Assembly: GCA_900758165.1 (NCBI GenBank)
Contig: CAAEQN010000114.1
Coordinates: 9,809-73,808, forward strand
From: Clostridia bacterium
Lineage (GTDB): Bacteria; Bacillota; Clostridia; TANB77; CAG-508
DNA length: 64,000 bases
Direction of reading: 5' to 3'
The notes below the pieces were generated by a model. The model ran no database searches and was not told the origin of the DNA. It saw only the letters and a program-made list of their open reading frames with translations. Positions 16,688-26,792 of the stretch are shown here, piece by piece; the first letter of the stretch is position 1, and each line of letters begins with the position of its first letter. A program made the translations under genes and the position numbers.

Positions 16688-17269
16688 ATGAAATACGACA
16701 TAGATTCAATAAAAAAGAGAAAAGAAATAAATAACAGAATAAAGAAAACTGTATTCATATTTATAATAATATTGTTGTATAATATTGTTTTATTGTACAT
16801 GTCTTATATAGATAAATTTGATACTCCTAGTTTTTATATCTATAAAGCCTATATTATATCAACAGAAAGTATGCAACCAACATTAAAAAAAGGTGATGTA
16901 ATAGTTATAAAAAAGGTAGATAAAAAAGATTTAAGAATAGATGACATTATTACTTTTAAAGTAAAAGGAGAAGTAATTACACATAGAATAGTTGAAATAG
17001 ATGAAGTTAATGGAACATATAAAACCAAGGGAGATAACAATAATATTATAGATGATGTAAATTTACTTTTTGAAGACATAGAGGGAAAAGAAATTATAAA
17101 AATACCACATTTAGGAAATATAGTTTCTGGACTAAAAAATGGAATAATAATAATACTTACAATATTGATATGTCTAATTATTTATTTAAACAAAATGGAA
17201 ATGAAAGAAAAGAGTAATGCTAGGAGAGAAAAAAAGAAAATTGAAGACCAAAAATTTATTGGAAAATAA
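16688..17269 (+). CDS. SipW-type (ER/archaeal-type, S26B) signal peptidase I, catalytic residues present
   Basis: 193 aa with an N-terminal TM. The motifs STESMQPTLKKGDVIVI (Ser), ITHRIVEI (His) and KTKGDNNNIIDD are present, followed by a C-terminal TM and basic tail. This is the SipW architecture. Confidence 0.85.
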   Translation: MKYDIDSIKKRKEINNRIKKTVFIFIIILLYNIVLLYMSYIDKFDTPSFYIYKAYIISTESMQPTLKKGDVIVIKKVDKKDLRIDDIITFKVKGEVITHRIVEIDEVNGTYKTKGDNNNIIDDVNLLFEDIEGKEIIKIPHLGNIVSGLKNGIIIILTILICLIIYLNKMEMKEKSNARREKKKIEDQKFIGK

Positions 17270-17813
17270 AAAAATTTTAAATATATTGAAATATATAGGA
17301 TTAGCATTATTTATTTGCTTAATAATATATAATTGTTTATATATTTTGAATAAGGAATTTAAAAAAAGAGAATATGTTAAAATTTTTAATATATATATAT
17401 CTACCCAAAAAGACAATCTTATGGAACCCGAAATATATAAAAATAGCTTATTAATTAGTTACAAAACAACAGAAAAAGATATAGATGCAAATAAGATTAT
17501 AGGATATGATTCTATAAATACAAACGCAAATATGTATATAAAATATTCTAGAATACAGAAGATAAAAAGCAATAATGGAAAAATTACATATATAACTAAA
17601 TTAGATAAAAATTACCATAATGACATTGAAGAGAAAAGCATAGAACAGTTAAAGTATAAGATAATAGTAAAATTGCCTATAATAGGATTTTTATTTAGAA
17701 TATTCGAGAGTAAAATTACTACAGTAATTGTTACAGTATTTTTTATACTAATTTTAAAGAGAAAATTATATAAAGAAAAAATGAGCTTTAAAAGAAAGCA
17801 AATAAGAAAATAA
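17217..17813 (+). CDS. SipW-like membrane protein lacking the catalytic Ser/His (pseudo-peptidase); start uncertain
   Basis: It has the same N-TM / C-TM architecture. The motif positions read LMEPEIYKNSLLISY (Ser replaced by Leu), KYSRIQKI (His replaced by Ser) and TKLDKNYHND. The ATG at 17217 overlaps the previous gene by 53 nt, and an in-frame TTG at 17259 is an alternative start. Confidence 0.55.
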   Translation: MLGEKKRKLKTKNLLENKKILNILKYIGLALFICLIIYNCLYILNKEFKKREYVKIFNIYISTQKDNLMEPEIYKNSLLISYKTTEKDIDANKIIGYDSINTNANMYIKYSRIQKIKSNNGKITYITKLDKNYHNDIEEKSIEQLKYKIIVKLPIIGFLFRIFESKITTVIVTVFFILILKRKLYKEKMSFKRKQIRK

Positions 17814-17831
17814 AAAGAGAATAAGGATATA

Positions 17832-18818
17832 TTATTCTACAGAAGACATTATATCCTTATTTTTGCTTTTTTTTATTACTGCAGGTAATACTTCATATAC
17901 AATTTTGAAGAAATGAAAATCTTCTAGTTCATTAAATTCTAAACAAGAAAGATATACATCTAATTCATTTAAGTTTTTACATGCTGTTATAATTGCAGGG
18001 TGCAAATTATAATTTGTAAGCAATTCGGTTGCTAAACCTAAAGCCTCTTTTTTAGTTCCATGCTCCTTATTTATTACTAACTTATATGCTTCTTTAAACC
18101 TAGAAACAGCTGAAAGTTGGTAGTTTTTTAAAGGAATTGTATATTTAGATAATATAACATCTGATAAAGATGTATATTTATCTGGTTCATTACGTAAAAT
18201 CTTTTTTAATTCGGAAATTTTGTAAGGCAATGTTACTAAACCAGTAACTTCCGAAATAATTAAGGTGTTTTCAACTAAAGAAACAGAATCTTTAGTTTTT
18301 TTAGAAGATGATTTTTTTGTGTTAACATCTTTATTTTTGTCAATTAGAGAATCTGCTAAACTTTCTACATTTTCCATATTATCTATAGAGATATATTCGG
18401 AAATATCAATTGTTGACATTGAGTGAATAAATTTCTCTATTTCAGAAGTATTTTTAAAAATTTCTGTAGTAGATGCTACAAACTTTTTATTGTATTGAGT
18501 TATCTTACTAACAGTTGTACTATATTCAATAGAGGGACAATTAAATTTTATATTATCTAATATATCTAACAAATTATTATATAAAGAAATATTTGAATTT
18601 ACTTTAGATAAATAGTAACTTGCATCAGATATAAATTTATTTATTGCATCAGAAAAAATAGAATCAACTTCTACATTACCAATAAAGCTCTTTAAAAAAG
18701 TTAAAATTTGCTTACTAAATGTTTTTTGCGAATTTAAAGAAGCATTTATTGAAGTTATTTCTATATTTATTAATTTTGTTACATTAGTTTTATTTGTTTT
18801 TGAATTTAATTTAATCAT
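17832..18818 (-). CDS. Hypothetical cytoplasmic protein (minus-strand gene between the two plus-strand operons of the island)
   Basis: 328-aa ORF with RBS GGAGGAAAC upstream on the minus strand (rc of gtttcctcc at 18820-18828). It has no TM segment and no recognised domain. Confidence 0.6.
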   Translation of the reverse strand: MIKLNSKTNKTNVTKLINIEITSINASLNSQKTFSKQILTFLKSFIGNVEVDSIFSDAINKFISDASYYLSKVNSNISLYNNLLDILDNIKFNCPSIEYSTTVSKITQYNKKFVASTTEIFKNTSEIEKFIHSMSTIDISEYISIDNMENVESLADSLIDKNKDVNTKKSSSKKTKDSVSLVENTLIISEVTGLVTLPYKISELKKILRNEPDKYTSLSDVILSKYTIPLKNYQLSAVSRFKEAYKLVINKEHGTKKEALGLATELLTNYNLHPAIITACKNLNELDVYLSCLEFNELEDFHFFKIVYEVLPAVIKKSKNKDIMSSVE

Positions 18819-19134
18819 TTGTTTCCTCCAAATAATATTATAAACATATTTGAAAAAAATATCAATAAAAATTTATATAAATTGTAAATTTTAAATAAAA
18901 TATATAATTAATTATATATTTGGGAATAATTATAAAAAGTATTTAAGAAACAAGAGAACATAAAGATAAATAAAAACACTAAATACATCATAAAATTTTT
19001 ATAAATATATATAAGTGAAAAAATATATACTAAAAATATCAAAAAATATTGAAAAAAAATAAACTGTATGATATATTTATAAAAAATAATACAGTTTTTT
19101 TGTCGATAAAACAAATTGACATTAGGAGGAAAAA

Positions 19135-25006: not shown

Positions 25007-25020
25007 AGTTAGGAGGTAAC

Positions 25021-26154
25021 ATGGAAAATTCAATAGTAGATATATATCAAAATGCAAGTCGAAAAAAAAGTGAGAAATTTAAAGAACATATAAATTCAAA
25101 TCTACATGTTCAAACAGATATTGAAAATGTAGTAAGAGATACAGATTGGATAGATATAATGGAAGATACTATTCCATATATAGACAATATTTTTCGTGCA
25201 CCAAACAGATTTATAATTAATGAAGAAGAAGTAGTAAAAATAGAACGTGCTAGAAAAATAACAGTTGAAAGTATAAAAAATCTAGCCAAAAATACAAGCT
25301 TTATACAAGAAGTAGATAAAAAAACTGGTGATGTTAAACCATCTAAAATTTTAAACATAGACAAAGAAGAAAGTTATGACACTTATGAAAATAGACTTAT
25401 TTATACACTTATACAAAATATGAAATTCTTCTTAAGTATGAAGAAGAAGTCATTGGAGCAAGTACAAAATGCAGGAAATAAAAATAATAAAAAAATAGAA
25501 TATACAGGAAGCTCAAAAATATCAAATGAAAAAATAGATATAAATATGTCTTTAAATACACAAATGTGTGCAGAAAAGAAAAATAAAGATAAAGAAGAAG
25601 AACCAGACGAATTATTATTAAGAATATCAAATTTAGAGACTAGAATATCAGACTTGACAAATAGTGAAGTATATAAAGTAATAGATAAGAAACATATTGC
25701 ACTTGTGAGGGAACCAATAAAAAAGACAAATGTTGTTTTAAAAAATGTAAATTTTCAATATGCTATGAAATTATGGACATATTTAAGAGACAACATAGAA
25801 GATAGAACAAAAAGTAGCAAAGAAAAGAAGAATTATGAAGATAAAGGAAATTTAAAAAATTTAATGGATGAATCATTCTTCTTAAATTATTTAATAGTAA
25901 GTACTTTAAATAAAAGCAAGGATAAAGAAAACATAGAACAAACTCAAGAAAAACAAAAAGAGATGCAAGAAATAGTAATAAGTAAAATGTTAGAAAAAGT
26001 AATGTCTATGAATAATGAATTATCTGAAAAGCAATTAGAAGATGTTATAAAGGAAAAATACGCTATAATTAAATATAGAAATCAAGCTAACATACAAGAA
26101 ATACAAAAAATATTTAATAAACATATTGATAAATATTTAGAAAAAATAAGTTAA
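25021..26154 (+). CDS. McrC/DUF2357-like partner protein without a recognisable nuclease domain
   Basis: 377 aa, starting 15 nt after the AAA+ gene with RBS AGGAGGT. The motif EESYDTYENRLIYTLIQNM resembles the conserved D-t-p-E-N-R-f block of McrC/DUF2357-type partners. The C-terminal half is K/E-rich coiled coil with no PD-(D/E)xK-like motif seen. Confidence 0.4.
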   Translation: MENSIVDIYQNASRKKSEKFKEHINSNLHVQTDIENVVRDTDWIDIMEDTIPYIDNIFRAPNRFIINEEEVVKIERARKITVESIKNLAKNTSFIQEVDKKTGDVKPSKILNIDKEESYDTYENRLIYTLIQNMKFFLSMKKKSLEQVQNAGNKNNKKIEYTGSSKISNEKIDINMSLNTQMCAEKKNKDKEEEPDELLLRISNLETRISDLTNSEVYKVIDKKHIALVREPIKKTNVVLKNVNFQYAMKLWTYLRDNIEDRTKSSKEKKNYEDKGNLKNLMDESFFLNYLIVSTLNKSKDKENIEQTQEKQKEMQEIVISKMLEKVMSMNNELSEKQLEDVIKEKYAIIKYRNQANIQEIQKIFNKHIDKYLEKIS

Positions 26155-26183
26155 TTACAAAATACTTAAAAGGAGAAAAAACG

Positions 26184-26792
26184 TTGAAAAAATTATTAGA
26201 AAATAAAGCTTTAAAGATTATAGGAAATATTTTATATTATCTGCTAGTTATATTAGTTGTAATGATATTAGCTGTTGTACTTTTACAAAGAGTAACTAAC
26301 AACAATATAAGTTTAGCTGGAATAAGAGTTTTTAATATTGTAACAGAAAGCATGGTACCAAAGTATCAAGTTGGAGATATATTAATATCAAAGACAATAG
26401 AGCCAGATAAAATAAAAGAAGGCGACGATTTAGTATATCTAGGTAAAGAAGATTCTTTTAAAGATAAAATTGTAACACACCAAGTAATTAAAATAGAAAA
26501 CGAAAATGGAGAATATAAATTCCATACAAAAGGAATTGCAAATCCAGAAGAAGATCCAGTAGTATCTGAAAGCCAAATATATGGAATTATAATATATAAA
26601 ACTCATGTATTGAGCTTTATAAGCAAAATAATAAATAATTTATATGGATTCTATTTCTTAATATTTGTGCCACTTACAATTTTAATAATTGTAAAAGTAA
26701 TTAAATTACATAGAGAATATAAAGAAGAAAAAGATGCTAAAGAGGAAAATGAGAAAGAAGATAGAGAGGATAATAGTGGAAAAGAAGAATAG
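26184..26792 (+). CDS. SipW-type signal peptidase I, catalytic Ser/His present
   Basis: TTG start after AAGGAG. It has an N-TM, the motifs IVTESMVPKYQVGDILIS, VTHQVIKIE and HTKGIANPEEDP, a C-terminal TM and an acidic/basic tail. Confidence 0.8.
   Translation: MKKLLENKALKIIGNILYYLLVILVVMILAVVLLQRVTNNNISLAGIRVFNIVTESMVPKYQVGDILISKTIEPDKIKEGDDLVYLGKEDSFKDKIVTHQVIKIENENGEYKFHTKGIANPEEDPVVSESQIYGIIIYKTHVLSFISKIINNLYGFYFLIFVPLTILIIVKVIKLHREYKEEKDAKEENEKEDREDNSGKEE

Follow-up and report, generated by a model that had tools for sequence, protein, structure and literature searches.

A locus with five SipW/Sec11-type signal peptidase paralogues in a Clostridia genome includes a widespread putative pseudo-peptidase

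RESULTS

Five S26B paralogues at one locus

In a stretch of low-GC DNA from a Clostridia bacterium (contig CAAEQN010000114.1, positions 9,809 to 73,808; 64,000 nucleotides in total, hereafter the window; GC content, ~26%), we investigated five open reading frames (ORFs) of 174 to 202 amino acids (aa) each, all on the forward strand between positions 16688 and 26792. A preliminary description had proposed that they encode five paralogues of the SipW/Sec11-type (S26B) signal peptidases and that two of them are catalytically dead. We refer to these genes as A1 (16688-17269), D1 (17217-17813), D2 (19135-19671), A2 (20373-20897) and A3 (26184-26792).

Family membership was assessed with the NCBIfam model TIGR02228 (archaeal/ER-type signal peptidase I), which has a curated cutoff of 51.85 bits. 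A1 (86 bits), A2 (79.3 bits) and A3 (82.2 bits) passed this cutoff, whereas D1 (35.9 bits, E 6e-9) and D2 (28.3 bits, E 1e-6) missed it, both aligning near full length. D2 also matched the Bacillus SipW model (36 bits, E 4e-9); scores against the Bacillus SipW equivalog model were far under its cutoff. Pfam alone gave weak matches to only A1 and A2 among the five. Profile-profile comparison using hhalign linked A1 to D1 with a probability of 99.9% (E 6e-36) and D2 to A1, A3 and A2 with probabilities of 98.0%, 97.9% and 96.5%, respectively (E 2e-13 to 9e-10). The PDB matches of A1 were human SEC11A and SEC11C. Together with the TIGR02228 scores, the profile-profile comparison confirmed the presence of five SipW-like paralogues at this locus.

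The overall architecture of the divergent copies was also as described, with an S26 fold and two hydrophobic helices. The AlphaFold2 model of D2 (predicted local distance difference test [pLDDT] score of 76) consists of a helix at residues 2 to 27, a beta-domain and a second helix at residues 140 to 177. A Foldseek search with this model returned SEC11C and SEC11A as top PDB matches (7p2q and 7p2p; E 1.6e-4 and 3.2e-4; TM score, 0.47 to 0.54), followed by Streptococcus pyogenes SipA as the third match. Hydropathy profiles of D2, A2 and A3 showed both the N- and the C-terminal helix; for A1 and D1, the assignment rests on visual inspection. All five window copies terminate in short K/E-rich tails. 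That the dead copies might be unrelated membrane proteins resembling S26B enzymes by chance was excluded by the profile-profile probabilities and, for D2, by the structural matches to SEC11. D1 and D2 are thus homologues of the S26B family, and we file them as such rather than as peptidases because they lack the catalytic Ser and His.

Catalytic residues

The catalytic columns were read from a MAFFT alignment, from hmmalign to a profile of the active groups and from hhalign, and all three agreed. The question of which Asp is essential rests on published mutagenesis of Sec11 and SipW. A1 (TESM, THR, KGDNN) and A2 (TGSM, THR, KGDAN) carry the Ser, the His, the proximal Asp of the GD box and the distal Asp; the Ser of the A1 motif TESMQP aligns with that of SGSMEP in SEC11A and SEC11C, and the His of ITHRI with that of their IVHRV. 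A3 (TESM, THQ, KGIAN..EEDP) retains the Ser, the His and the distal Asp and has Ile at the proximal position. The earlier claim that three copies keep all the Ser, His and Asp boxes therefore stands for Ser and His in A1 to A3 and for the GD box in A1 and A2, and needs refining for A3, in which the proximal Asp is replaced.

These patterns are conserved among orthologues. In A2 orthologues, Ser and His were each found in 80/81 sequences, the GD Asp in 81/81 and the distal Asp in 78/78. A3 orthologues kept Ser and His in 72/72 and the distal Asp (DP) in 70/70, and the GD position was I, V or L in 65/72 and Asp in 0/72. Judging from these residues, A1, A2 and A3 are likely active peptidases of two subtypes.

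The boxes of the other two copies read as had been reported (LMEP and YSRI in D1, ELEP and AKVT in D2), and both Ser and His are missing. D1 (DNLMEP, KYSRI) has Leu at the Ser position and Ser at the His position. D2 (NEELEP, VAKVT) has Glu at the Ser position, Asn or Ala at the His position depending on the aligner, and a deletion across the Asp region. We also looked for Ser and His at shifted positions and found none: the alignments agreed, and none of the positions conserved at >=85% in the D2 family is His.

D2 belongs to an old family lacking the catalytic residues

D2 had 409 homologues at E <= 1e-3, typically with 50 to 75% identity, all from uncultured Clostridia and all without names. 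When species were screened by a single genome each, 166 stretches encoding a D2 relative came up, which places the family in at least 166 species genomes. A profile was also run against 1.84 billion cluster representatives, with 449 hits at E <= 1e-10, 96 of them at E <= 1e-30. In the 85 members taken from the loci, the Ser column was variable (E, D, S, N, K or T) and the His column contained no His at all; the Ser position was mostly Glu or Asp and the His position mostly Val, Ala or Gly. Only 1/126 diverse full-length representatives of the family had both Ser and His.

Despite this uniform loss, D2 is conserved at the level of its active paralogues. In the eight closest species, its identity was 0.71 to 0.72, about that of A1 and A3 and above that of A2. 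Conservation was higher in the two transmembrane segments (0.64 and 0.79) than in the ectodomain (0.58), an order that is reversed in A2 and A3; evolutionary constraint on D2 has shifted to the membrane helices. The invariant motifs TVCLLSYN and LESKWGFL are located at the outer ends of both helices. D2 opens its operon after a divergent, AT-rich intergenic region of 316 nucleotides (18819-19134), and its ATG is preceded by an AGGAGG ribosome-binding site. A promoter scan in this AT-rich DNA was uninformative, with 109 sites compared to 113.6 expected. In the related locus L003 (loci of the comparison carry L numbers), the interval between D2 and the homologue of the upstream gene p328 holds two genes at 11790-13395, one for a sigma factor of the ECF type (Sigma70_r2/r4; 182 aa) and one for a protein of 355 aa.

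Because of the many homologues, the uniform catalytic loss, the conservation at the level of active paralogues, the strong ribosome-binding site and the first position in the operon, we consider D2 to be functional rather than decaying: its sequence record is that of an ancient, selected pseudo-peptidase. The proposal that pseudo-enzymes have been retained is thus well founded for D2. We found no earlier report of an S26B pseudo-peptidase family in the literature.

D1, A1 and a giant surface-protein gene

D1 presents a different picture. It is most probably a tandem duplicate of A1, since A1 is its closest relative and its ORF overlaps the 3' end of A1. Only a handful of homologue clusters were found. 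The closest orthologues (P0122 to P0126) read ENSMSP or EDSMSP together with YHR and so retain Ser and His. The catalytic state was tallied over 14 genes at the D1 position. Both residues are kept in six loci (L003 to L006, L009 and L011) and both are lost in another six (the window, L036, L039, L040, L046 and L047); L007 has lost the Ser, and L061 has lost the His and shows an alignment gap at the Ser position. D1 is missing altogether from L010 and L012. D1 thus seems to have shed its catalytic residues more than once, and the window copy is one such case, a recently inactivated duplicate.

Upstream of A1 lies a giant surface-protein gene (8321-16656, forward strand) whose product has a signal anchor at its N terminus and repeats of the YGGGN type. 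Two frameshifts break the window copy into three ORFs. Using the intact 2875-aa orthologue of L003 as a tblastn query, we recovered three frames; one frameshift falls close to 11590 and the other between 12126 and 12210. An assembly artefact was ruled out, since the identical split into 1085, 72 and 1518 aa occurs in five independent metagenome assemblies; the frameshifts are fixed in the species. The gene is intact in L003, L005 to L007, L009 to L012 and L040, and related species encode it as one uninterrupted ORF of ~2500 to 2900 aa. The module of giant protein, A1 and D1 is an upstream addition present in only ~17 close relatives.

The state of D1 in this genome could therefore reflect decay: the module would be in the process of being lost, and D1 would have drifted after inactivation of the substrate gene. 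We regard this as a serious possibility, though one that falls somewhat short of an even chance. The retention of Ser and His by the nearest orthologues and the fixed disruption of the giant gene both speak for it, as do the co-occurrence of a dead D1 with a split giant gene in L036 and L047 and the absence of D1 from L010 and L012. Moreover, the window D1 was only 0.51 identical to its orthologues, compared to 0.63 for the orthologues among themselves, while for the other four genes the two values differed by <=0.04. However, the D1 ORF is of full length, with both hydrophobic segments and no stop codon, and the same protein is found on many contigs. Copies retrieved from within the species showed no protein differences, and between orthologues, at 45 to 75% identity, synonymous sites would be saturated. 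In addition, the dead D1 of L040 adjoins an intact giant gene and L007 has lost only the Ser, suggesting that a D1-type protein may serve without catalysis. The window D1 may thus be a decaying relic or may belong to a lineage in which catalysis became dispensable, and we leave these two readings side by side. For D1, the notion of a retained pseudo-enzyme is not supported in its original form, given this lineage-specific loss, the faster divergence and the frameshifts in the adjacent giant gene.

A conserved operon around D2, A2 and A3

The core operon of ~12 kb starts with D2. The gene order, p328 (reverse strand), D2, p217, A2, p190, p309, p332, p508, p377, A3, p228, p199r (reverse strand), p264 and p320, was fixed in essentially every sufficiently long locus among ~80 loci examined, and D2, A2 and A3 flanked the pair formed by the GTPase gene p508 and the DUF2357 gene p377 in every locus that was long enough. 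These loci span divergent species, with D2 identity down to ~45%, and the flanking genes vary by species. In the window, the cluster is flanked by what we take, by eye, to be a Spo0A-like response regulator (4449-5267) and a CTP synthase (30329-31960); in L001, holA and a cell-wall hydrolase are found instead. The view that the expansion is specific to this locus did not hold, as the D2-A2-A3 trio is ancient and is fixed in the conserved operon; only the A1/D1 pair looks like a younger tandem duplication.

Additional copies occur in some relatives. L038 encodes A3-like copies at 1055-1681, 4233-4850 and 4973-5680, L054 encodes another at 4513-5025, and L062 has a second D2-like copy at 13764-14333. 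Since these relatives exceed the window count, the number of SipW-like paralogues in the system is plastic.

The most conserved protein of the cluster is p508 (23480-25006, forward strand), in which an N-terminal transmembrane and coiled-coil region is fused to an McrB-like AAA+ GTPase domain. It is near-invariant across 70 loci and contains long invariant stretches even across species whose D2 proteins are only ~45 to 55% identical. As read from the sequence, the transmembrane segment lies near residues 55 to 80 and is followed by a heptad-like charged helix. p508 matched structures of Escherichia coli McrB (6ut6 and 7vsr; E 9e-4); NCBIfam McrB and Pfam AAA_5 gave weak matches, and the best match in the defence library was the PADLOC model PDC-M26A (113.6 bits). 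Its signature GTINNDDST aligns to the E. coli NTAD motif as NNDD (NxxD) and can also be read as NDD (NxD). The adjacent p377 (25021-26154, forward strand) carries the N-terminal domain of McrC, DUF2357 (PF09823, 45.5 bits), followed by a K/E-rich helical region that probably forms a coiled-coil; profile search detected no nuclease or other domain in this C-terminal half.

Two further genes encode conserved proteins for which library scans returned no family match. One, p328 (17832-18818, reverse strand; 60 loci), is transcribed divergently from D2 and encodes 328 aa without a signal sequence. The other, p332 (22442-23440, forward strand; 75 loci), encodes a cytoplasmic protein that likewise lacks a signal sequence.

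Exported proteins of the cluster

Seven proteins of the cluster (p217, p190, p309, p228, p199r, p264 and p320) begin with basic residues, followed by a hydrophobic helix and a conserved motif of the [ST]-[YF]-[AG]-x-[FY] type. p217 (19682-20335, forward strand) is a secreted or anchored beta-sandwich protein with a TYAxF motif after its N-terminal hydrophobic helix, and it is a paralogue of p199r, with which it has 141 matches in common. p190 (20900-21472, forward strand; 80 loci) is small and has, besides its N-terminal hydrophobic helix, a conserved YES motif; p309 (21489-22418, forward strand; 75 loci) likewise begins with a hydrophobic helix and carries an FGRY motif. In p228 (26734-27420, forward strand), an SYAWF motif follows the hydrophobic helix; this gene overlaps the A3 stop codon, and metagenome gene calls place its start at ~26776.

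On the opposite strand, p199r (27471-28070) encodes another exported protein of the beta-sandwich kind, in which the motif reads IYAKY; a hairpin resembling a terminator flanks the gene at 27419-27447. It has 993 homologues, its AlphaFold2 model (pLDDT 79) shows an N-terminal helix followed by a beta-sandwich, and we consider it a candidate main subunit. p264 (28183-28977, forward strand; 57 loci) is membrane anchored or exported and matched no family. Its conserved C-terminal region (EGDDPDC...LIGG.MKMHM) forms an acidic, Cys-containing block, IEGDDPDC.D.LIGG.MKMHM.ITEEH, that looks like a metal- or calcium-binding site. p320 (29168-30130, forward strand) has an N terminus, SSYAWFTS, that fits the model for SipW-cognate signal peptides (TIGR04088), barely passing it with 19.7 bits against a cutoff of 19. 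TasA- or camelysin-like identity of the exported neighbours was rejected, since no Peptidase_M73/TasA match was obtained with Pfam, NCBIfam, the PDB profile search or Foldseek of p199r.

Links between the peptidase-like proteins and their neighbours

A3 and p228 overlap in the window (26734/26776-26792), and in four species the two form a single ORF of 415 to 427 aa (L015:17110-18363, L017:16829-18076, L024:17188-18441 and L035:17056-18339). D2 and A2 of some species are extended by K/E-rich C-terminal tails of 100 to 200 aa that are predicted to be cytoplasmic and have a repeated AKLKSMTEEEK-type motif. Long-tailed D2 proteins are encoded at L045:9947-11059, L055:9980-11059 and L078:9932-10906, and long-tailed A2 proteins at L050:9703-10578, L067:2337-3203 and L081:11127-12005. 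The D2 tails contain repeated 'AKLKSMTEEEKKAL' units. Such long tails bring to mind the coiled-coil regions that recur in the McrB and McrC partners.

Co-variation of evolutionary rates was analysed by the mirror-tree approach on 58 loci and 55 protein pairs after removal of the shared background, with 2000 Mantel permutations. The pair p508-p377, the expected McrB-McrC partnership, served as the positive control and scored 0.59, second to p309-p199r (0.62) and ahead of p190-p309 (0.55). D2-A3 ranked 4/55 with an r of 0.43 that was reached by 0/2000 permutations; as related sequences lack independence, we read this as no more than a hint that the two proteins pair. A modest co-variation was also seen for p332-A2 (partial r, 0.33).

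DISCUSSION

The clustering of five S26B paralogues, two of them without the catalytic Ser and His, is real. The interpretation originally attached to it, that such pseudo-enzymes are kept for a noncatalytic role, appears right for D2 and is doubtful for D1. The evidence would fit a role of D2 as a chaperone or docking factor. We favour, with guarded confidence, a scheme in which SipW/Sec11-type signal peptidases have diverged into specialised forms and D2 would be a noncatalytic subunit that holds or docks substrates, the S26B counterpart of SipA. The product of the cluster would be a surface fibre. A2 would act as the canonical peptidase and A3 as the form without the proximal Asp, adjoining or fused to the exported p228; cleavage after the Y-A/G motif may be divided between the two peptidases, each acting on its own subset of the exported proteins. 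D2 would bind the N-terminal signal anchor of the fibre subunits, or dock an active peptidase, for which A3 would be the best candidate, without cutting, and would so keep the subunits at the membrane assembly site. The short or long K/E-rich cytoplasmic tails could tie the peptidase-like proteins to the membrane-bound McrB-like GTPase and its McrC-like partner, a complex that may provide the energy for assembly. The giant protein, A1 and D1 would form an accessory module confined to close relatives. One may go further and imagine D2 and A3 as a pair of pseudo-enzyme and enzyme, a bacterial analogue of a multisubunit signal peptidase complex, wired through the tails to a membrane-anchored, nuclease-less, McrBC-derived GTPase ring; D2 would hold the subunit anchors uncleaved and the ring would drive their extraction and polymerisation; this more elaborate version we consider unlikely as it stands.

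Several observations weigh against the favoured scheme. Profile searches of the exported neighbours against PDB, Pfam and NCBIfam found nothing and so do not identify any of them as a pilin. The Foldseek matches of the p199r model were weak (TM score <=0.45), including chaperone-usher pilin domains and none to TasA. Only p320 among the cluster proteins passes TIGR04088, the p199r and p228 families failing it. In the N-terminal region of p508, Pfam did not match FtsB/DivIC even at an E value of 10. The mirror-tree correlations are confounded by common phylogeny. Ser113, Ser139 and Lys140 are invariant in the D2 family, which leaves room for a cryptic alternative active site, and p508 matches not only McrB but also a candidate phage defence model.

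Instead of holding substrates, D2 might regulate cleavage by pairing with an active paralogue and blocking or timing its activity, as a dominant-negative form or a gatekeeper. A fold and membrane topology shared with the active enzymes, the co-variation with A3 and the position as first gene of the operon would all suit such a regulator; yet inhibition and docking are indistinguishable on these grounds, and the strict one-to-one presence of D2 per locus fits a structural subunit equally well, so that we rate regulation as a rather unlikely alternative. Less probable again is that the cluster is an McrBC-derived membrane defence system with the peptidase-like proteins as effectors or sensors. 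The matches of p508 to McrB and to PDC-M26A point in that direction, as do the homology of p377 to the McrC N terminus and the restriction systems found among relatives of this GTPase clade. Against this, the gene order is fixed over ~80 loci in divergent species with varying flanks, unlike a mobile defence island; p377 has no detected nuclease domain, the unit contains seven exported proteins of structural appearance, and pilus assembly is the function foreseen in the paper that named the clade. Finally, D2 is very improbable as a hydrolase working through other residues, such as a Ser-Lys pair formed by Ser113 or Ser139 with Lys140 or Lys31, since, although S113, S139, K140, K31 and E101 are invariant or nearly so family-wide, the juxtamembrane segment LESKWGFL, which contains Ser139 and Lys140, is outside the canonical cleft, the canonical Ser position varies freely with no conserved His, and the same pattern of loss in SipA marks a non-enzyme.

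To our knowledge, SipA of the streptococcal sortase pili is the single case so far of a dead signal peptidase paralogue. D2 adds a second, independent origin, which lies in the ER/archaeal-type (S26B) branch. Its large family extends over hundreds of uncultured Clostridia from gut and rumen and at present carries no annotation beyond "hypothetical protein". The conserved operon combines peptidase-like membrane proteins with an McrBC-derived GTPase in a system, CoCoPALM, that was named in 2024 and never described. Moreover, the division into a canonical form, an Asp variant and a pseudo-enzyme, together with the A3-p228 fusion, yields testable pairings for subunit processing and assembly, and the D1 orthologues, some having the catalytic residues and others lacking them, form a natural comparison series. 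If true, the linkage of D2, A3 and the GTPase would represent an undescribed, NTP-powered pathway of fibre assembly in Gram-positive gut bacteria.

Comparison with known systems

The CoCoPALM class was named by Bell et al. (eLife 2024, PMC11090510) for McrB GTPases of a clade in which an FtsB-like transmembrane/coiled-coil domain is fused to the GTPase. These authors predicted a function in pilus assembly and deferred the description of the class; their article is silent on the number and catalytic state of the peptidase paralogues, on a pseudo-peptidase and on the exported proteins. We found no follow-up paper on CoCoPALM. Like CoCoPALM, the window has an McrB-like GTPase whose N terminus holds a transmembrane and coiled-coil region, a DUF2357 McrC homologue (p377) with a coiled-coil-like region, and signal peptidase family genes in the same operon of a Bacillota host. 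The cluster thus fits the description of this class, save for the undetected FtsB homology and the ambiguous NxD motif.

Similarly to SipW in the tapA-sipW-tasA operon of Bacillus subtilis, A1 to A3 are of the SipW type and are encoded beside their likely substrates. TasA carries the motif TWA|AFND, which the substrate motif of the cluster, [ST]-[YFW]-[AG]|x-[FY], resembles, and p320 meets the SipW-cognate signal model. In contrast to the window, B. subtilis has a single SipW, no pseudo-peptidase and no NTPase, and the exported proteins of the window match neither the TasA and camelysin families nor TasA structures. The TapA/TasA analogy is weak, given a p199r beta-sandwich model without a TasA match and a single protein that barely passes the SipW-cognate model.

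SEC11A and SEC11C (7p2p and 7p2q) are the best sequence match of A1 and the best structural match of D2. They share the Ser/His/Asp chemistry with A1 to A3 and operate in multisubunit membrane complexes together with noncatalytic partners. These partners are proteins unrelated to SEC11, unlike D2, which is a dead paralogue; SEC11 also lacks the C-terminal membrane helix and the K/E-rich tail found in D2.

The closest functional parallel may be S. pyogenes SipA, in which the catalytic Ser is replaced by Asp and the Lys by Gly, the peptide-binding cleft is kept and the protein is essential for pilus polymerisation (PMC4049620). D2 similarly combines a signal peptidase fold with the absence of both catalytic residues, and if the product is a fibre, its gene would, like that of SipA, sit in a surface-structure cluster. 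SipA, however, is an S26A protein of the Ser/Lys type with one membrane anchor, whereas D2 is of the S26B Ser/His type with N- and C-terminal helices. The partners of SipA are sortases and LPXTG pilins, families that library scans did not match in any cluster protein, and D2 is instead accompanied by two or three active paralogues and a GTPase. D2 thus lies outside the SipA family and would at most work like SipA.

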